DNA of 64,000 nt from a virus. The first letter of the stretch is position 1. The number at the start of each line of letters is the position of its first letter. Below the pieces are notes generated by a model. The model did not search any database. It was not told where the DNA came from and saw only the letters and a list, made by a program, of their open reading frames with translations. The stretch covers positions 65,322 to 129,321 of IMG/VR virus record IMGVR_UViG_3300035180_000343, one strand, 5' to 3'. Shown in pieces: positions 11,841 through 51,994 of the stretch. Made by a program: the position numbers and the translations under genes.

Positions 11841-13263
11841 CAGATGGCACCGTAAAACCTTGGCCTTTATGTCAGGGATATAAGGCGTGTTTTTAACTTG
11901 TTCCAAGTATATATTAGTAAAACCATTTTGTCAAGTGCTTTGACAATAATGAGTTCGTCAAAGTTGAACAATTATATAAATATACGTATATGAAACAATT
12001 ACTCGCATACAAATATCGGATTTATCCAACAAAGGATCAAGAAATCCTCTTGAGCAAAACCTTTGGTTGTAAGAGAGTAATCTTCAACCATTACCTAGAA
12101 GTGCAGCAAACCAGATACAAAAACAAAGAACCTCGGTTAAGCAATTTCGACATCAACAAAGACATCACCAAGTTAAAAGATGAAAAGGAATGGTTGAGGG
12201 AAGTCGATATAAACGCACTACAAGCGGCGGCGGGAGATTTGTCTGTTGCATATGACAATTTCTTCAAGTCGGTTACTGGTAAGAGAAAAGGTCCGAAGAT
12301 TTCTCCACCGAAGTTCAAGAACAAAAATTCTAGACAGTCGTATAGGACTCGTAATGTTCGCGTCAATGAAGACGGTTCTTTACAGATACCAAAACTAAAG
12401 TCAGTCAAAGCAGCCATCCACAGAGAAATTCCAGAAGGATCGATAATTAAATCGGCGACCATATCAAGGAACCCAGATGGAAGATATTACGCATCAATAT
12501 TAGTTGAAACAGAAGTAGCATTGCAGCCAATGACAGGTAAAGAAGTCGGTTGCGATTTAGGTCTCAAGGATTTGTTAATCACTTCAAGTGGTATAAAATT
12601 CAAAAGACCCGATGATTTACCAAACATTGCGAGAACCAAGCAATTGTTGAAGTTGAAGCAAAGACAGTTCGCAAGAACCGTTAAAGGTAGCAAAAATCAC
12701 GAATCGTTAAGACTTCAAGTAGCACGACTTTATTCGAAGAGCACAAGACAAAGAAATGAATATTATCATCTAGTTAGCAGATACTTGGTTGATAATTACG
12801 ATTCTATCTACGTCGAAGACTTGTCGAGTAAAAATATGTTACAGAATAGGAAGTTGAGTCGAGCGATTCATGAAGTGGCTTGGACAACTTTGTCCAATAT
12901 GATTTCATATAAATCATCTTGGGCTGGTAAAACTTATCATCAAATCGATCGTTGGTATCCAAGTAGCAAGACCTGTAGCTCTTGTGGTCATAAGCTCGAG
13001 AAACTTGATCTTGGCACTAGAGAATGGACTTGTCCGTCTTGTGGAACTCATCATGATCGTGATTTAAATGCTGCTATGAACATTCTTCATGTCGGTCAAG
13101 CCGACTGCTACGGAGAAGAAATGAAGTCGCAAGCAACAGGCGACTTGGGACTAGAGATCCCAGTGGCCCTACAGAAAATGACCATTAAAATCGAGAGATC
13201 CAACGCTACGTTGGTTGGTCATGGGAGTGGGCAAGCTACGTCCTTTAGGGCGTGGTAGTTGAC
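11841..13263 (+). mobile_element. IS200/IS605-family tnpB-only (IS1341-like) element, copy 1
   Basis: TTTAT|CAGATGG left end; right-end hairpin ending GTAGTTGAC; no tnpA. Confidence 0.9.
11990..13258 (+). CDS. tnpB: TnpB RNA-guided nuclease
   Basis: AYKYRIYPT, GCDLG (RuvC-I), VEDL (RuvC-II), CxxC-CxxC, HDRDLNAA (RuvC-III). Confidence 0.97.
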   Translation: MKQLLAYKYRIYPTKDQEILLSKTFGCKRVIFNHYLEVQQTRYKNKEPRLSNFDINKDITKLKDEKEWLREVDINALQAAAGDLSVAYDNFFKSVTGKRKGPKISPPKFKNKNSRQSYRTRNVRVNEDGSLQIPKLKSVKAAIHREIPEGSIIKSATISRNPDGRYYASILVETEVALQPMTGKEVGCDLGLKDLLITSSGIKFKRPDDLPNIARTKQLLKLKQRQFARTVKGSKNHESLRLQVARLYSKSTRQRNEYYHLVSRYLVDNYDSIYVEDLSSKNMLQNRKLSRAIHEVAWTTLSNMISYKSSWAGKTYHQIDRWYPSSKTCSSCGHKLEKLDLGTREWTCPSCGTHHDRDLNAAMNILHVGQADCYGEEMKSQATGDLGLEIPVALQKMTIKIERSNATLVGHGSGQATSFRAW

Positions 13264-33533: not shown

Positions 33534-34445
33534 TCAGCCATTTCTCTTTTCATACATTGCACCCTTAGCCAAGCCCTCAGAAACGTATATAGACGAGATT
33601 TTGTCTACATCCAGCCCGTCTGTCAAGCATTCGGCCTTTATTTGTTCTACAAAAAAGTCGGTAAGGTTTTCAACTGTGGTTTCAGTGTCAACAATTTGAT
33701 ATTTTGCATCGTCCGAAATAATCTTAATTTGAATAGTCCCACGACACTTGCTATCATATGTGACAGTCTTTGATGATTCATCCCAGTTGCTCGACCAAAT
33801 GAACATTGTGTTGTCAAATTTGGCTACAACCTTTTGAATTGTTTTTCCAAACCCAACTAATTCATCTTTTGAAATGGAATTGATTGTAACCGTCAAATAA
33901 GACAGATGACCATGTAAAGTCTGACATCCAAACGAAGAAGAGTTCTTCAAACCATGGGTATAGGAGAAATAAAATACGTTTTCATTATTTTGACCAGGCA
34001 TTCCTTCGATGTCAATTGTGTTGAAACATTTAATCTTAAGAGTTGGGTTCAACTCATTCAAATATTCTTCCAGTGCAACCGTGAAGGTATCAAACAGATT
34101 CTTTTCGGGATCTTCTTCGATGAACCGAACCCCATTATCTGGAACTCTAATCTCAAACATCTTCGTCTTAATGATATAGACATGCCCAACTAACTTCGTC
34201 GAAACAACACCAGATCGATTAGAAATGATTAACTTGTGGTCAAACCCAGTCTCTTTGTCGTCAATCTGACTCTTCAATTTCTTTTTAATTGAAGAAAAAT
34301 CTTCGACAACTTGTTCTTCATTGTCGGTTGATCCGGAAACGGTGAATTTTGGGTTAAACGAAGCCCCCAAAATATTTCCATTTTCTGTAATAAAAGCACA
34401 ATCAATGGTAGTAACCTGACCTAACCACATCGTCGAAGTGTTCAT
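33534..34445 (-). CDS. queD: tandem-domain QueD-like (T-fold) CPH4 synthase
   Basis: FDHKL, YTHGL...CQTLHGHLS, ETTVEN. Confidence 0.75.
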   Translation of the reverse strand: MNTSTMWLGQVTTIDCAFITENGNILGASFNPKFTVSGSTDNEEQVVEDFSSIKKKLKSQIDDKETGFDHKLIISNRSGVVSTKLVGHVYIIKTKMFEIRVPDNGVRFIEEDPEKNLFDTFTVALEEYLNELNPTLKIKCFNTIDIEGMPGQNNENVFYFSYTHGLKNSSSFGCQTLHGHLSYLTVTINSISKDELVGFGKTIQKVVAKFDNTMFIWSSNWDESSKTVTYDSKCRGTIQIKIISDDAKYQIVDTETTVENLTDFFVEQIKAECLTDGLDVDKISSIYVSEGLAKGAMYEKRNG

Positions 34446-34501: not shown

Positions 34502-37498
34502 TTAAAAGAAATCATCGATGCTATATCGTTTTTCGGCCGACCAATTGATGGTAGATAGAATGTTGTTAATCGGACTCATGAATGCTTTTTCCCATTGAAG
34601 TTCCTTGTCAATGTACGGGACCAAATCGGGTGGCATTTTATCGACAAAAGCAAACGCATTCTCTCGCATTGGATTTGGAATTTTCATATAGAAAAACTTG
34701 ATCTTTTCCCCTTCTCCTACCAATCTAAACTCTGATTCCAATTTAGAATCGGTGACGTACTTATTATACATCAATGCTGCTCGAACGTGAAACGGCGTTC
34801 CTCCCCTATAAATTGAATTTTTGTCCTTATACTTTTCCAAGTTATTAGCAGTTCTTGGAAAGGCAATCTGCTCTGGGGGAAAATTCATGAATTCATTTTT
34901 ACACTGTTTGATGAATTCTTGCAAATCAGACTCGGTGCTCAATAAGCATTTCTGTAGAGCAGTCTTTAAAGTTTTTCTACATACGGTTGGAGTGCTCGCC
35001 CGATTAACTTCGATTCCAGTTACTGAAATCTGTGGCTCGTCATATATTACACCTTCATTATAAAGATAGGCAAGAACATATCGTTTCTTCCCTCTCCAAA
35101 TTGCGGCCTGACAAATCTTTTCAATCTTAAATGCAAATGCATTCTCATAACAATTTAGGCCGTCGAATATTTCCTTACATGCCGCATCTACTACCTGTTG
35201 AAGTTTTTGGTTAACGAATTTCTCGATAGCGATAGCAATTTTGTTTGCATTAGATAAAATTGATTCTGGGAATAGTTTTGTAACTATTTGATTTAAATCG
35301 AGATATAATGAATTGTGCACTAAAATGTTGTTGGCAAAAAAGTTATGACATTCATTCACTTCGATGTCATATACCCAATCTTCAACGATTCCCAATGACT
35401 CAATCTTAAAATCTGTTTCTTCTTTCATCGATGTTCTTTTGAGTTTAATAAATTTGTCCGATGATAGTACATCTTTTGGTTTAATGGAAATTATTTCCCC
35501 GTCTCGCTTAACAATCAAGGAATGGTCGGAGGTACAAATAATAGAATCTTTCCCCACAGTTATTTTAAACATCTCTTTCTTTACTTTATGTTTCATAACA
35601 TAGTTGATTGGTCTATATACTTGGTTTCCCTCGGAATCGACGGCTGCTGCGTTCAATCCAACTTTAGACTTTACTATATTTCCGGTACTTGTTTTAATCT
35701 CGGGTGCATCTGTTTGATTAAAGATTTCCTCGATTGTCTTTTGGCAATTGTCTAGCTGAATTAACGACGATCCAGCGACGGAATCAGTATCGGTGTACGC
35801 AACAAAATCAATATCCTGTGTTTTCAGCAATTGATTCAAAAATTCGTTGACTCGATTGCCGACATGACGAATCAACAACTGACCAGTCAACGTCGTTGCT
35901 TCCGCACACCTATTGTCAAAGTGTCTGAAGAAACGATTAGCAGTGGCGCCATAAAACGAATTCAACAACGTTTTCAATGCGTTTTGTTTATTATCTAACG
36001 CTGAAATTTCCAAATCCAGTTCTAACTTTCGCCTTTCGTCTGTCTCTTTTTGCTTTTCCTTTTTCTTCTCGATCATCAACTTTTTCGTATCTGCGCGTCT
36101 ATTATATACTCGAGTTACGATCTTTCCGATATGACTTTGTTTACGCCGATAAAAAGATCCATTAGGAGCAAACGACAAGTCATACTTCTTTAAAACTGCT
36201 TCAATCTTTTTAATGTTCTTTAACAAAGCATCGACAGAATGCATTAAATAGAATTCTCTGAGCTCCAATGGAAGAGCGTCATATTCAACAATTGTCTCGG
36301 ATGAAATATTAACAGAACGAATATTAGATGGGTAAAGTGAGTTTGCATCGAGACTTACTACCCATTCATGTCGCCCAACAATCGGGTCTTTTACATACGC
36401 ACCTTCAATTGAACTTGAATCGCTTGGAGGTGTAAAAACAGCATCGACAAAAATGTTTTCCCTTGCCAGCTCATTTTGAATAAAGAAATCCCATGTTTTA
36501 ACTGGGCTAAACACGTCCTCGTAGTTCACCCCAGCCATATAGGCAACACTGATATGCTGGCTTAGAAGTTTCTTTTTGTTTTCAATGTCTACAATTAGTT
36601 GAACGTCTATGCAGTTATATTCGACGAACTTTTTCCAGTCTCGATCTTGAAATGCTTGGAATGATTCAAACTCGCTGTGATCTAGCTTGTTTGCGCCAAG
36701 CACTTCGAACGCTATATCGTCAAGTTTATAACTTTCTCTTTCACCTGGAACATACTTCTTAAACAAGTCAAGATAATCAATGAGAGCAATGCCACCAATC
36801 TTATATGAATAAGAATTTGTTAGATCATCATACCTCTCATATATGTTACCAATTGGCGAAAGTCGTTTTGTTTCTTCTGGGCCAAGAATTTTCGATATCC
36901 GACGAACTAGATATGGGATATCAAACCCGTCACTATTCCATCCTACGATGATGTCTGGACAATTTCCGTTAATATGATTTACAAAAGATTGAAGAAGGAA
37001 TTGTTCAGTTGCACAATAACGATAATCTGTCTTATCTGTTTCAAGCGGATGAAGTCCCCATGTGATGAACTTAGACCCGTTAAAAATTGTGATGAGGGAA
37101 ACCCTTTCTGCAGCATCCCTCGGATTTGGGAATCCACCGAGAACAACCTCGGTTTCGATGTCCAAATAATAAGTTAGAATCTTTGATTCATCATACGTCG
37201 ACGGAATTTCAAATTTCTCTGAGATATATGCGTAGGGGAAATTGGTATTTCCAAACAGCTCAAACCCTACAACAGCATCATATTCCTTTAAGTATTCTTT
37301 TGCTTCTCGAATTGAATCGAATTTGGTGGGGGAAATATTATCTCCCTTCATCGACTTATACTTAGATTCCTTGTTTGACTTGGTGAATAAAGTAGGGGAA
37401 TATTCGTCAATGGTCGTGACACGATTGCCATTCCGATCAATAAATCTACAAAAGACTTTGTTTCGATATTGCTGGAAATTTAGAAAAAACGGTTGCAT
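34502..37498 (-). CDS. 43: family B DNA polymerase gp43 with mini-intein
   Basis: DIETE, WNSDGFD, SLDANSLYPS, KTLLNSFYG, YTDTD|S. Confidence 0.97.
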   Translation of the reverse strand: MQPFFLNFQQYRNKVFCRFIDRNGNRVTTIDEYSPTLFTKSNKESKYKSMKGDNISPTKFDSIREAKEYLKEYDAVVGFELFGNTNFPYAYISEKFEIPSTYDESKILTYYLDIETEVVLGGFPNPRDAAERVSLITIFNGSKFITWGLHPLETDKTDYRYCATEQFLLQSFVNHINGNCPDIIVGWNSDGFDIPYLVRRISKILGPEETKRLSPIGNIYERYDDLTNSYSYKIGGIALIDYLDLFKKYVPGERESYKLDDIAFEVLGANKLDHSEFESFQAFQDRDWKKFVEYNCIDVQLIVDIENKKKLLSQHISVAYMAGVNYEDVFSPVKTWDFFIQNELARENIFVDAVFTPPSDSSSIEGAYVKDPIVGRHEWVVSLDANSLYPSNIRSVNISSETIVEYDALPLELREFYLMHSVDALLKNIKKIEAVLKKYDLSFAPNGSFYRRKQSHIGKIVTRVYNRRADTKKLMIEKKKEKQKETDERRKLELDLEISALDNKQNALKTLLNSFYGATANRFFRHFDNRCAEATTLTGQLLIRHVGNRVNEFLNQLLKTQDIDFVAYTDTDSVAGSSLIQLDNCQKTIEEIFNQTDAPEIKTSTGNIVKSKVGLNAAAVDSEGNQVYRPINYVMKHKVKKEMFKITVGKDSIICTSDHSLIVKRDGEIISIKPKDVLSSDKFIKLKRTSMKEETDFKIESLGIVEDWVYDIEVNECHNFFANNILVHNSLYLDLNQIVTKLFPESILSNANKIAIAIEKFVNQKLQQVVDAACKEIFDGLNCYENAFAFKIEKICQAAIWRGKKRYVLAYLYNEGVIYDEPQISVTGIEVNRASTPTVCRKTLKTALQKCLLSTESDLQEFIKQCKNEFMNFPPEQIAFPRTANNLEKYKDKNSIYRGGTPFHVRAALMYNKYVTDSKLESEFRLVGEGEKIKFFYMKIPNPMRENAFAFVDKMPPDLVPYIDKELQWEKAFMSPINNILSTINWSAEKRYSIDDFF
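35312..35782 (-). other. 157-aa mini-intein in polymerase motif C
   Basis: YTDTD|SVAGSS...NNILVHN|SLY; Ser1; CTSDHS block B. Confidence 0.92.
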
Positions 37499-37753: not shown

Positions 37754-38644
37754 TTAAGCTCCAATTGCGTTGTTATATACTTCAACTTGAAGTCTTGGGC
37801 TGAACATAAATCCTTTATTAAGGGCATAATCTGCAATAAAATGTTCGATTTTATTTTGTTGTTCTAGATCAGCACCAACAGGCATCAATGCAATTTTAAA
37901 ATTACCATTCTGTTCAATTCCGAGTTTATCAATGGCAGCTTTAAGATCTCGAACCGAACTAATATTCCAATCAACTACAAACTTATATCCAATTGAAAGA
38001 TTCGTTGGAAATTCCGAAATCAAATTATCGAACGCACCAGGAATAATTGCCTTTTCGCTCTTCTCACCTGAAACACTTTCCAATTTCGGGCTGACATTGA
38101 TTTCAACTGGAACATCCCCAACCAATCGTTTGAATTCGAAAACAAATTCTTTTGATAGCACTTGGGTTCCATTGGTCTCAAAACAGAACTTTTTGAACAC
38201 AATGTTTCTTTTTTGAAATTCTTGTAGAATTAACAATATTGCTTCTTGGTTCACTGGAAGAAACGGCTCGCCTCCAGTGAATGTCATATTAAACTTTGAA
38301 GAGGGAACAAAGGAAGGCAACAAATCAAGAAGATTATCGACAACTTCTTCTGGTGTCTCGTTCTTCTGGAGTTTCTTAAACGGCCCAGCCCAACTATACG
38401 CACTGTCACATCCGAGCGAAAATTGTTCTGCAGTTAGTTGTTCGACCCCAATGTCATTGTTTGTTGCTTTAGCAATTTCAATATAAGAATCTAGGTGGGA
38501 ATCGACACCAGAATTTCCAAACCCAGCACATTGAAGGTTGCAACCAAAAAACCTTAACCAAAGACTTGGCTCCCCAACTTGGAATGCCTCTCCTTGCATC
38601 GAGGCAAACATTTCACTATAACGAATCAATTTAGACATGTTCAA
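37754..38644 (-). CDS. queE: radical SAM 7-carboxy-7-deazaguanine synthase QueE
   Basis: SMQGE, RFFGCNLQC...CDS, TGGEP, ETNGT, SPK. Confidence 0.92.
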   Translation of the reverse strand: MNMSKLIRYSEMFASMQGEAFQVGEPSLWLRFFGCNLQCAGFGNSGVDSHLDSYIEIAKATNNDIGVEQLTAEQFSLGCDSAYSWAGPFKKLQKNETPEEVVDNLLDLLPSFVPSSKFNMTFTGGEPFLPVNQEAILLILQEFQKRNIVFKKFCFETNGTQVLSKEFVFEFKRLVGDVPVEINVSPKLESVSGEKSEKAIIPGAFDNLISEFPTNLSIGYKFVVDWNISSVRDLKAAIDKLGIEQNGNFKIALMPVGADLEQQNKIEHFIADYALNKGFMFSPRLQVEVYNNAIGA

Positions 38645-39211: not shown

Positions 39212-39589
39212 TTAAACTTTGATCTCGCTGTATCCAGTTGCTGTCGAAAACACAATCCTTTTTATCTTCATTGCTTGAATGATCGGAAAACAGAGTTCAC
39301 ATGGCATAGCTAACCCAGTTCCACCTTTTTTCATCGACCTAGAGACAAACATAGTCGAACCATTCAACTCTTTAATTCTGCCACTTTTAATCAACTTCAT
39401 CACAGCATCCATCTCGGCATGAAGAGAACCCTCAAAGTGATTAGATTTTAGCCGACTCTTTCTAATTTGGTTATGACCAGTCGAAATAATTCGATCACCT
39501 TTAGTAATCACGCATCCGACATTAGCTCTGTCGAATGTAGACTTAAAGGATTCGATAGTCGCCTTTTCCATCAATCTTGTGTAGTTCAT
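39212..39589 (-). CDS. Zn-dependent nucleoside deaminase-like protein
   Basis: HAE...PCELC; start corrected to MNYTRL downstream of TTGACA-17-TATACT. Confidence 0.8.
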   Translation of the reverse strand: MNYTRLMEKATIESFKSTFDRANVGCVITKGDRIISTGHNQIRKSRLKSNHFEGSLHAEMDAVMKLIKSGRIKELNGSTMFVSRSMKKGGTGLAMPCELCFPIIQAMKIKRIVFSTATGYSEIKV

Positions 39590-39674
39590 GCTAAAAGTAT
39601 AATGGATTTGGTCTGAAATGTCAATAATTTTCTGTAGAAAAGAAAGGGATGTCGTTTGACATCCCCGAATATTT

Positions 39675-40000
39675 GATCCAGCCACTTCTGTTGCCAAGCA
39701 GGCTGGTCGCTCCGAGTCTTAAATCAGTCTGCAATTAAGCAGCCAGACGAACCTCATATGTTGCGTCGTTAGACGCTTCCACGTTTGCATTTACTTCATT
39801 TGCTTCTTCAACTATCACGGCTTCTGCGTTGCCGATTCTCCAGTTATCTTAATCATCGCCAATCGATTCCAATTCAGCCCCATCGGAAATACAGACAATT
39901 GCGTCTATACTTCTGATGAGGTTGGTGGAGCTGGAGAGACTCGAACTCTCTTCTTGTTCGACTTTCGATAACCTTCACCGAATTCTTTAAATCAATTTGG
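39675..40000 (-). ncRNA. ssrA: circularly permuted (two-piece) tmRNA
   Basis: T-arm plus CAGCTCCACCA (ends 39923) lies upstream of 5' GGGGCTG (39881); G3:U70; tag ORF ANVEASNDATYEVRLAA* 39788-39735. Confidence 0.9.
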
Positions 40001-40064
40001 GCCAAAATACATCAGAGGATTTGGCGAAAAACGTTTTAATTGACAACCACGTACCAAAAACATA

Positions 40065-40454
40065 TTACTTCTCCAGGTACTTTCTCCAAGGCTCGGGCAT
40101 GTTACAATTTGAACCACACCGCTTAAAGAGTGGAGCAATATCTTTGTCATCGAATCCTGCCAAGCCACAACCTACCCTTGTGACCCAGAATTGAATGTGA
40201 GGGTTAGCAAGGGATGCATTAACGAAGTCATTGATGTGACCTCGAACTTTGTCGAACGAAAGACTCCGAATGTTTTCGTCTTTTGTTGGAATTGCTAGAG
40301 ATTGTCCCACCAACCCTCGTCCAAGTCCACGCACGGCGCCGAATCGAAGTTGAGCTTCGAGTGCGGCACCTGCTCCGTGAATCCCGGCAAGGTTTGATCC
40401 GAACACGAAGATTTCTCCATTCTCTGGAGTTGTCATGTCTTTATGGTATTTCAT
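40065..40454 (-). CDS. conserved phage protein (FVFGSNLAGIHGAGAA family, Macro-like)
   Basis: motifs FVFGSN..G.HGAGAA, VTRVGCGLAG; start corrected. Confidence 0.75.
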   Translation of the reverse strand: MKYHKDMTTPENGEIFVFGSNLAGIHGAGAALEAQLRFGAVRGLGRGLVGQSLAIPTKDENIRSLSFDKVRGHINDFVNASLANPHIQFWVTRVGCGLAGFDDKDIAPLFKRCGSNCNMPEPWRKYLEK

Positions 40455-43993: not shown

Positions 43994-44069
43994 AGGAGTC
44001 TAGGTGGATTCGAACCACCGACCTCGCGTTTATCAGATCGCGCGCTCTAACCACCGAGCTTCAGACTCC
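43994..44069 (-). tRNA. tRNA-Ile(GAT)
   Basis: GGAGTCT/AGACTCC acceptor, CT-GAT-AA loop, GGTTCGAATCC; one extra base in anticodon stem; no encoded CCA. Confidence 0.85.
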
Positions 44070-46979: not shown

Positions 46980-47741
46980 TTACATCTCCACTATCAAATC
47001 AGGTCTAAAAGAATTATACTCGCCGTAATATCCACGTGGATTACAAATGACCCGAGTTCCATTCTTAGCATAATCACAAGAAGAATGAGTGTGACCATGT
47101 ACCCAAAGATCACACTTTCCAAGAAGATGCCCGAGATCGTTAGTGAAATATGGTCCTAAACTATTTCCAGAATAGCGAGGATCTATGCTTTCCAAAAATG
47201 GGACAAAGTGTGTCATGACGACAGTTTGTCCATCAAACTTTTTCTTCAATTGGCCTTCGATCCATTTAATGTTCCTCTGTCCCATTGCTCGGCATTCTTC
47301 AACTGTGAACCGACCATTTTCTCCTTTGATTTGGAAGAAATCGTTAATGTCCGCCCTCGCCTGTCGCATGTTGAACTCGACTCGTTCTTCAGAGTGCATT
47401 TTCCATTCAAACGTAGTCCACAACGTACTTCCAATGAATCTAATTCCTTGTATTTCAACTGTCTTGTTGTTCAGCAAAACGACCTGAGTATTCTTGAACT
47501 CTTTCTGAAAATGTTTGTTCAACTCATCGATTGTTTTGACACTATAGTATTCGTGGTTTCCAGGAACAAACAACACAGGAACTTCACGTGGAATATTCCG
47601 AATCAAATCCTTGACCTTGTTAGGAGTCTCCAGTCCACTATAAACGTCACCAACTAGGAGCAATATATCCTCATCCAAATATTCTAATTCCAATGGATGA
47701 TTCTCCAAGTGGAGATCCGACAAAATTCGAATAGCAGTCAT
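46980..47741 (-). CDS. calcineurin-like metallophosphoesterase
   Basis: SDLHLE, VGD, PGNHE, HGHTH. Confidence 0.92.
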   Translation of the reverse strand: MTAIRILSDLHLENHPLELEYLDEDILLLVGDVYSGLETPNKVKDLIRNIPREVPVLFVPGNHEYYSVKTIDELNKHFQKEFKNTQVVLLNNKTVEIQGIRFIGSTLWTTFEWKMHSEERVEFNMRQARADINDFFQIKGENGRFTVEECRAMGQRNIKWIEGQLKKKFDGQTVVMTHFVPFLESIDPRYSGNSLGPYFTNDLGHLLGKCDLWVHGHTHSSCDYAKNGTRVICNPRGYYGEYNSFRPDLIVEM

Positions 47742-48844
47742 TGAGAATTCTTTTTAAAGTTCGAGTAAACATTACGAAGAGAATATTTATTTAGCATATA
47801 CTTTTCAAAAAACTTCTTGAAATCTGGATCTTTTCCTTCGATTTCCTTTATGGCCAATCCAAAATACGGATGACAACGGTGGAGCAATGCAAACTCTTTT
47901 CTTTCTAACTGTTTCCCAATATTCGCCAATTCTTTCGTCGATTCGATAATTTGATCAAAATCTTTAGTCACTTGATGTTCAATATCCAAGATCGGATCGA
48001 GTGACAATCCCTCTTCAACGATAGTAGATTTCAAATCATCTAAAGTTTCGTCGAGAATCAATTTAACAACATCCCGACCACGCAATTCAGTCCTAAGTCT
48101 GTGATGAAGAAGATACCATTCGGTCTTTATCTTAACGCGTTCTTGAGTGCTCTTATTGAAGAGAACGTAGCCCTCAAAGTTTATTTTAAGTTTGACATCG
48201 AGAAAGATCTCGTCTAGGGTCTTGTTCCATACTGGAATTGAATCAATCCCCAATTGTTTAGCATAAAATATTGGATCATGATACCATCCATCGTTATTTT
48301 CTCGAACAGCCAGTAAAACTAAACGAGGTTCTTGTCCATAGTCCAATACAATTCTGCTATCGGGAGAAGTGAATTCAAAAATCGAAGTCAGGCTATCGTT
48401 TGCGATGGATTTGACTGCTTCGTAAAACCGACCGTTTGTTGTATTATTGTATTCATCTGCAAATTTTTGACAATTCACTGCGACGTCTGAGTAAAATGAC
48501 TTCTTCGTTTTCCAGAACACTTTATCATTAACGACAACTGGAGAAACCATTGAGCCGTCACGTTTCTCCAGAACGATGACGTCGTTCCAATTCCAGTTTC
48601 GAACAACACCGATCTGAGTTTCCGGCCGCTCTCCCATGTTAAAAAACTTCTCGAATGGCCGACAAACAACATTTCCAGTGGAGTCAAACGTGATGCCACG
48701 ACATTCTTTTGCCAAAGGAATTTCCCAAAGATCATTAGTGGAAATCATATATGAGCAGATAGTCAATTGCTCACCATTAACTTCCTCTTCTTTAAACTTA
48801 ATCATGGGTTCATTTTGTAAACCCTTGAAATCACTGATATTCAT
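47738..48844 (-). CDS. rnlA: T4 Rnl1-type RNA ligase
   Basis: ECRGI, PFEKFFN, EKRDGS, FEGYV, KIKTEWY. Confidence 0.92.
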   Translation of the reverse strand: MNISDFKGLQNEPMIKFKEEEVNGEQLTICSYMISTNDLWEIPLAKECRGITFDSTGNVVCRPFEKFFNMGERPETQIGVVRNWNWNDVIVLEKRDGSMVSPVVVNDKVFWKTKKSFYSDVAVNCQKFADEYNNTTNGRFYEAVKSIANDSLTSIFEFTSPDSRIVLDYGQEPRLVLLAVRENNDGWYHDPIFYAKQLGIDSIPVWNKTLDEIFLDVKLKINFEGYVLFNKSTQERVKIKTEWYLLHHRLRTELRGRDVVKLILDETLDDLKSTIVEEGLSLDPILDIEHQVTKDFDQIIESTKELANIGKQLERKEFALLHRCHPYFGLAIKEIEGKDPDFKKFFEKYMLNKYSLRNVYSNFKKNSQ

Positions 48845-51910: not shown

Positions 51911-51994
51911 TGGTGCATGAGGAGAGACTCGAACTCTCAATCCTTGCGGCGGCAGATTTTAAGTCTGCTGTGTATTCCATTCCACCACTCATGC
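51911..51994 (-). tRNA. tRNA-Leu(TAA)
   Basis: GCATGAG/CTCATGC, CT-TAA-AA, long variable arm, CCA. Confidence 0.93.

Follow-up and report, generated by a model that had tools for sequence, protein, structure and literature searches.

The virus contig studied here carries a gene that is very likely a genuine and probably functional phage ssrA, circularly permuted and closest in type to the tmRNA genes of Alphaproteobacteria. tmRNA is the RNA that frees stalled ribosomes. The gene lies in the window, the 64,000-nucleotide stretch that was analysed, which is part of an IMG/VR record of 129,321 bp estimated by CheckV to be ~71% complete. ARAGORN called a permuted tmRNA (tmRNA*) at 39644..40016 (-), the sole such call reported, and in a search of the whole 64-kb window the Rfam model tmRNA_permuted (RF04321) matched 39735..39983 (-) with 79.9 bits (E 1.1e-13) against a gathering score of 47, the match spanning positions 1-213 of the 213 in the model. 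The same match is the only one to RF04321 in the entire virus record. Reading along the minus strand, the parts follow one another in permuted order, with the CCA end at 39923, then a spacer (39922-39882) and only then the 5′ G at 39881. A preliminary description, made from the sequence alone, had proposed a phage-borne, circularly permuted two-piece tmRNA with its own tag frame and had suggested ARAGORN and the Rfam models as checks. Both programs, together with cofolding of the two pieces, support the proposal, and the positions it gave for the T arm, the CCA end, the 41-nt spacer, the 5′ end at 39881, the G3:U70 pair, P2 and the tag were all correct. The gene is present within the span originally given, 39675-40000, though it extends more widely, from about 40031 to 39636, and the appropriate annotation would be ssrA (permuted) with these limits.

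The acceptor piece of the precursor, as defined by the sequence, the Rfam alignments and the cofold, comprises up to 109 nt (39923..40031; this and all further elements of the gene are on the minus strand). It opens with a 5′ leader (40031-39984) whose 5′ limit derives from sequence matching and is not a mapped RNA end: 40031 is the point where an independent metagenome contig of 3170 bp (L113) and the contigs of four sequencing runs cease to match the window. The match to the alphaproteobacterial model alpha_tmRNA (RF01849) starts at 40032, adjoining this limit. After the leader come the 5′ strand of P2 (39973-39954) and a T arm of 5 bp with a 7-nt loop (GAGAG 39950-39946, TTCGAGT 39945-39939 and CTCTC 39938-39934), followed by the 3′ strand of the acceptor stem (CAGCTCC, 39933-39927), the discriminator A at 39926 and an encoded CCA (39925-39923). 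The 5′ strand of the acceptor stem, GGGGCUG, is at 39881-39875. Seven pairs are formed between the two strands in the sequence and in the cofold, the third being G39879:U39929, the G3:U70 pair of alanine identity that had been recognised from the start. In the minimum-energy structure of the cofolded pieces the acceptor stem, the T arm and P2 together make the canonical tRNA-like domain. P2 had been described as pairing at 14 of 16 positions, and the cofold returns exactly this helix, with 8 bp between 39973-39966 and 39858-39851 and 6 bp between 39963-39958 and 39866-39861, separated by a 2x2 mismatch. Three additional pairs are made beyond it by 39956-39954 with 39872-39870, the 3′ strand of P2 as a whole occupying 39872-39851.

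The intervening spacer (39882..39922, 41 nt), which is presumed to be removed on maturation, contains the hairpin noted in the preliminary description. This hairpin has 11 bp and a folding energy of -14.6 kcal/mol (z -5.48), a value that none of 200 shuffled sequences equalled. No ORF or other cargo is found within 39882..39922.

An 18-mer made up of the T arm and the next base, GAGAGTTCGAGTCTCTCC, is identical between the tmRNA (39933-39950 (-)) and a phage tRNA-Leu(UAA) gene (51921-51938 (-)), and not one match arose in 100 shuffles. A constraint common to both genes, gene conversion or coincidence may lie behind this identity.

The coding piece of the precursor (39637..39881) holds the acceptor 5′ strand, the P2 3′ strand, the tag frame and, after it, a 3′ hairpin and the terminator. 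Between P2 and the tag frame, a hairpin with the stem CGGC/GCCG (39834-39818) aligns with the pre-tag hairpin of RF04321; a second stem was not seen with folding tools that are blind to pseudoknots. The tag frame runs from the resume codon GCA at 39788-39786, which is preceded by GUAAAU, to the UAA stop codon at 39737-39735 (39735..39788) and encodes a tag of 17 codons, ANVEASNDATYEVRLAA. It opens with GCA AAC (Ala-Asn) and closes with CUG GCU GCU UAA (Leu-Ala-Ala). The RF04321 consensus (UAAAUGCAAACG; UAAaUGCaAACGA...GCuGCcUAA) aligns to the same frame, so that translation and alignment both confirm the tag first read from the sequence. ARAGORN reported a longer tag (EEANEVN...) that begins at an in-frame GAA upstream. 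Because of the alignment to the Rfam consensus and the GUAAAU context, the shorter reading from GCA 39788 is favoured.

Downstream of the tag frame, the alpha_tmRNA alignment defines a 3′ hairpin (39675..39708) with the stem CCAGCC/GGCUGG and the motif UGGCAACAGAA in its loop, a motif conserved at the same position in the alphaproteobacterial tmRNA model. The region 39640-39710 folds far better than shuffled sequences (z -5.06). An intrinsic terminator was identified by the terminator scan and by folding at 39636..39666, where a hairpin (39666-39645) with a 9-bp stem (5 G-C) and a 4-nt loop is followed by a U-rich tail; the tmRNA unit thus ends near 39636. The sequence of the terminator is unchanged in L113. 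The promoter scan found a strong sigma-70-like promoter just outside the tmRNA (TTGACA-17-TATACT, 11/12; 39596..39624 (-)), which serves the dCMP deaminase gene and delimits the tmRNA unit on its downstream side. Upstream of the tmRNA gene the same scan gave no convincing sigma-70-like promoter, and the transcript may come from read-through from the upstream gene or from an unrecognised signal. One weak promoter-like site, at 39697-39668, falls within the conserved 3′ hairpin and was set aside as a probable chance resemblance.

The similarity to the alphaproteobacterial type was assessed with RF01849, which matched 39675-40032 with 37.1 bits (E 5.7e-9), a score that is below the gathering score of 50 and is the best among the overlapping models of the clan. 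In this match the 3′ loop motif is kept and the outer helix of the model is unmatched. The features shared with bacterial permuted tmRNAs (RF04321/RF01849) are the gene order, the acceptor stem with its G3:U70 pair, the T arm, P2, the resume context UAAAU-GCA-AAC, the tag end GCUGCU-UAA and the loop motif. The gene differs from them in being carried by a phage, in its sub-cut-off alpha score and in the missing alpha outer helix. In addition, the alpha-like genes that were recovered have shorter tags. The nearest genes on viral contigs are about 67% identical and have alpha-like tags (ANDE... and ANDNFAP...). It had been suggested that a permuted tmRNA hints at the lineage of the host. While the nearest type is indeed alphaproteobacterial, the hint is weak given the low score and the mismatch seen for the phage Melnitz, which has an alpha-type ssrA in spite of its non-alphaproteobacterial host (PMC9004378), and the host is therefore not readable from the tmRNA subtype.

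To look for bacterial relatives, GTDB was searched for the exact 28-nt word formed by the T arm, the acceptor 3′ strand and ACCA. Five matches were obtained, in Dehalococcoidia, Chloroflexi and marine MAGs. ARAGORN found tRNA-Ala(GGC) at three of these (L107, L108 and L109) and no gene at the other two, and in the four GTDB genomes with matches that were searched for tmRNA, a one-piece tmRNA scored above the cut-off in three and a permuted one in none. The matches were accordingly rejected as evidence of a host or donor. The permuted-specific part of the tmRNA had no bacterial genome match in this word search.

The tmRNA gene sits inside the replication module of a T4-like phage contig. Its same-strand T4-type neighbours include the DNA polymerase (34502-37498), SbcCD-like gp46/47, the replicative helicase, NrdA, a single-strand DNA-binding protein and an Rnl1-type RNA ligase. 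Upstream on the same strand is a gene of PHROG 2072, downstream is the dCMP deaminase gene (39589-39212 (-), PF00383 in Pfam), and the DNA polymerase is ~2.1 kb away. Lying within the contig, with phage genes on either side, the tmRNA gene is phage-borne and not a host fragment at a contig end. Among isolates, the DNA polymerase has its best matches in Synechococcus myophages, where identity is only about 40%. No SmpB (PF01668) was detected in the 129-kb record in a search that matched the control genomes, an absence that is unproven for the phage because the record is ~71% complete. With no SmpB in the contig, function of the tmRNA would hinge on a compatible SmpB of the host.

Several other genes were noted in the window. 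QueE-like radical SAM and QueD-like genes (37754-38644 (-) and 33534-34445 (-)) flank the DNA polymerase and would fit a pathway for 7-deazaguanine modification of DNA in the phage. A metallophosphoesterase gene (46980-47741, PHROG 1649) is directly preceded by the Rnl1-type RNA ligase gene (47738-48844, PHROG 562), both on the minus strand; the two resemble a pair of the tRNA-repair type, and the tRNA and tmRNA genes lie in this region too. Beside tRNA-Met, ARAGORN reported a tRNA-??? with the anticodon 'ga' at 43994-44069 (-), which also matches the Rfam tRNA model with 49.6 bits. By eye, only 4 pairs (CGCG/CGCG) make up its anticodon stem, and the loop, AUCUGAUAAA, has about 10 nt; the gene could encode a tRNA that is degenerate or whose anticodon loop is expanded.

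By investigating the variation in related populations we found that the gene is preserved in a neighbourhood that is not, both flanks being variable or replaced. The tmRNA stretch is present in five metagenomic DNA runs, with no RNA run listed among them. They come from sediment and microbial mats, are all from one year and possibly from one campaign, and four of them were compared over 39560-40100. In these four the gene is about 99% identical to that of the window. There are 6 variant sites in the 406-nt block 39626-40031 as against 10 in the adjoining 66 nt (Fisher p 6e-6), and only one in the 245 nt of the coding piece; contigs under-report rare variants, and a low density of this kind could partly be due to a recent sweep instead of selection. 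Of the five variants that fall at positions predicted to pair, four leave the pairing intact. Three of these change G.U to A-U, at 39973 in P2, 39892 in the spacer stem and 39782 in the tag region, and one changes C-G to U.G, at 39967 in P2. The fifth disrupts a pair in a weakly predicted hairpin of the leader. The variant at 39782 also changes codon 3 of the tag from Val to Met, and the same Val3Met tag is found in L113, where the tmRNA is 98.8% identical to that of the window. The low variation and the kept pairs fit a conserved structured RNA gene in a mosaic neighbourhood.

In L113 the tmRNA is followed by the same deaminase gene and is preceded by a DUF7338 gene instead of the PHROG 2072 gene, before which there is a TnpB gene 88% identical to the TnpB gene of the window (11990-13258). 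The stretch 40031-40060 (-) appears as a mosaic hot spot, with at least three alternative upstream sequences joined at 40031, one of them with a 29-nt insertion. All of the alternative sequences upstream of 40031 retain the motif TTG(G/A)(C/T)ACGTGGTTGT.

From the structure of the gene and from established tmRNA biology we infer how the RNA would be processed, charged and used for tagging, and ordinary trans-translation run by host factors is the best-supported reading. Transcripts of permuted tmRNA genes are cut by enzymes of tRNA processing to give two pieces that afterwards stay base-paired (PMC11915505). Here, a single precursor transcript would end at the intrinsic terminator and host tRNA-processing enzymes would excise the spacer 39922-39882, with RNase P presumably cutting at G39881 and 3′ trimming stopping at the CCA end at 39923. 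The long P2 helix would keep the two pieces joined, and the host alanyl-tRNA synthetase would charge the CCA end by way of G3:U70. With SmpB and EF-Tu of the host, the tmRNA would then enter ribosomes that have stalled on mRNAs which are broken or lack a stop codon, translation would resume at GCA 39788 and ANVEASNDATYEVRLAA would be appended; the ribosome would be freed and the tagged protein passed to proteases of the host that recognise LAA at the C terminus. Since a T4-like infection stops host transcription and degrades mRNA, many truncated messages are to be expected, and the likely benefit to the phage is that ribosomes are kept available during infection. We found no experimental study in the literature on the function of any phage tmRNA.

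It is also conceivable, if unlikely, that the same RNA is kept mainly as a counter-defence, rescuing ribosomes that stall when anti-phage RNases of the host such as anticodon nucleases, toxin mRNases or RNA-targeting CRISPR effectors cleave mRNAs or tRNAs, an idea already put forward in the preliminary description. In T4, tRNA that an anticodon nuclease has cleaved is repaired by a pathway to which Rnl1 belongs. The phage tRNA genes in the window and the Rnl1-type ligase beside a metallophosphoesterase ~8 kb from the tmRNA are circumstantially in keeping with such a role and make the repair of RNA damage a theme of this genome. Against this, nothing ties the tmRNA to any defence system, and T4 has Rnl1 yet no tmRNA. 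Were counter-defence nevertheless the main role, the tmRNA would work alongside the RNA ligase and the tRNA genes of the phage. That the tag, which is divergent, longer and polymorphic (Val or Met at position 3), is kept for a reason and not by drift, or else that the RNA is mainly one of counter-defence, we consider rather improbable; if the tag is kept for a reason, proteins tagged during infection might fare differently from those tagged by the host, for instance by escaping a host adaptor or being diverted from it.

A decoy, in which the tRNA-like domain titrates host SmpB and so blocks trans-translation by the host, seems very unlikely. The 129-kb, ~71% complete contig without an SmpB match would suit a decoy, and such a role has been proposed for the tag-less tRNA-like fragment of mycobacteriophage DS6A. 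A molecule resembling the DS6A fragment is reported to inhibit tmRNA strongly in E. coli (PMC4131195, PMC11915505). A decoy, however, would need neither the coding piece nor the canonical resume context, the Ala-Asn start and the LAA end, whereas here the whole coding piece is kept with a single variant in its 245 nt. Although temperate elements often integrate at tmRNA genes, pieces of which are found in phages, there is hardly any likelihood that the gene is a functionless passenger, whether a recent capture of host DNA, the remnant of an attachment site or a product of chimeric assembly, given that it is complete and not a fragment, that a tyrosine integrase search of the 129-kb record found no integrase, that in the GTDB word search the permuted-specific part matched no bacterial genome and the only genes called at the 28-nt matches were those of tRNA-Ala, and that the same junction between tmRNA and deaminase is common to L113 and the contigs of four runs at even depth with variants that keep the structure, a pattern that argues against a chimera in particular.

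The reading as a functional phage ssrA is in line with what is known of other phages. tmRNA genes were found in 402 of 18,146 phage genomes, with 133 unique structures (PMC9004378). ARAGORN called 53 of these, in phage isolates, as two-piece, and 50 of the 53 are from marine or aquatic phages (PMC9004378). The carriers include the Pelagibacter myophages HTVC008M and Mosig, phiCbK-like Caulobacter phages, and the Synechococcus myophages S-CAM1, S-CAM3, S-CRM01, S-SSM7 and S-CBWM1 (PMC9004378). Melnitz, a T4-like phage of OM43, also has a two-piece ssrA (Buchholz et al, 2022, PMC9004378). The 2025 tmRNA database counts 79 bacteriophage sequences (PMC11915505). In our own searches the Melnitz gene, which is annotated as SsrA in GenBank in a phage of the family Kyanoviridae, was re-found with 113.4 bits for RF04321, as tmRNA* by ARAGORN and with the tag ANDNYVPVDYALAA. 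A search of IMG/VR with one junction pattern returned 56 loci, many of them on short contigs that may be host flanks of prophages, and ARAGORN called tmRNA* at 49 of the 56. The preliminary description had regarded a permuted tmRNA as unusual in a T4-like phage. The published examples and the Melnitz gene contradict this, and with the IMG/VR loci they place the gene in a type that is already known.

With Melnitz, HTVC008M and Mosig the present phage shares a T4-like myophage genome, a complete permuted tmRNA of the alpha type with its own tag, and a location among early, replication and nucleotide-metabolism genes. The tag differs in length, with 17 amino acids here compared with 14 in Melnitz, and the genes adjacent to the tmRNA are different. 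Moreover, the glutamine riboswitch of the 3′ domain of the Melnitz/Mosig-type ssrA was not found here: no Rfam model of the glnA type matched 39400-40300 even with E values up to 10, and none reached the gathering score in the window. The habitat, as given in the run records, is sediment and microbial mat, whereas Melnitz and the SAR11 myophages come from the open ocean. No match to the tmRNA gene was obtained with blastn in its 'distant' mode at E 1e-5 against 50,697 phage records, and among the other permuted tmRNAs recovered from IMG/VR the nearest reach no more than about 67% identity, over some 220 nt. There was no tmRNA at 22 loci with homologues of the upstream gene, nor at 27 loci with homologues of the DNA polymerase. 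All but one of the IMG/VR fragments found have a DNA polymerase of at most 43% identity, and the one close relative, L080, with 98% polymerase identity, does not extend to the tmRNA side.

The case opens no new question and, as both phage and host are uncultured, does not make the role of phage tmRNAs testable. It adds one divergent example, from a poorly sampled phage lineage, to a published class, and it speaks for the idea that a ribosome-rescue RNA of their own is common among large lytic phages.
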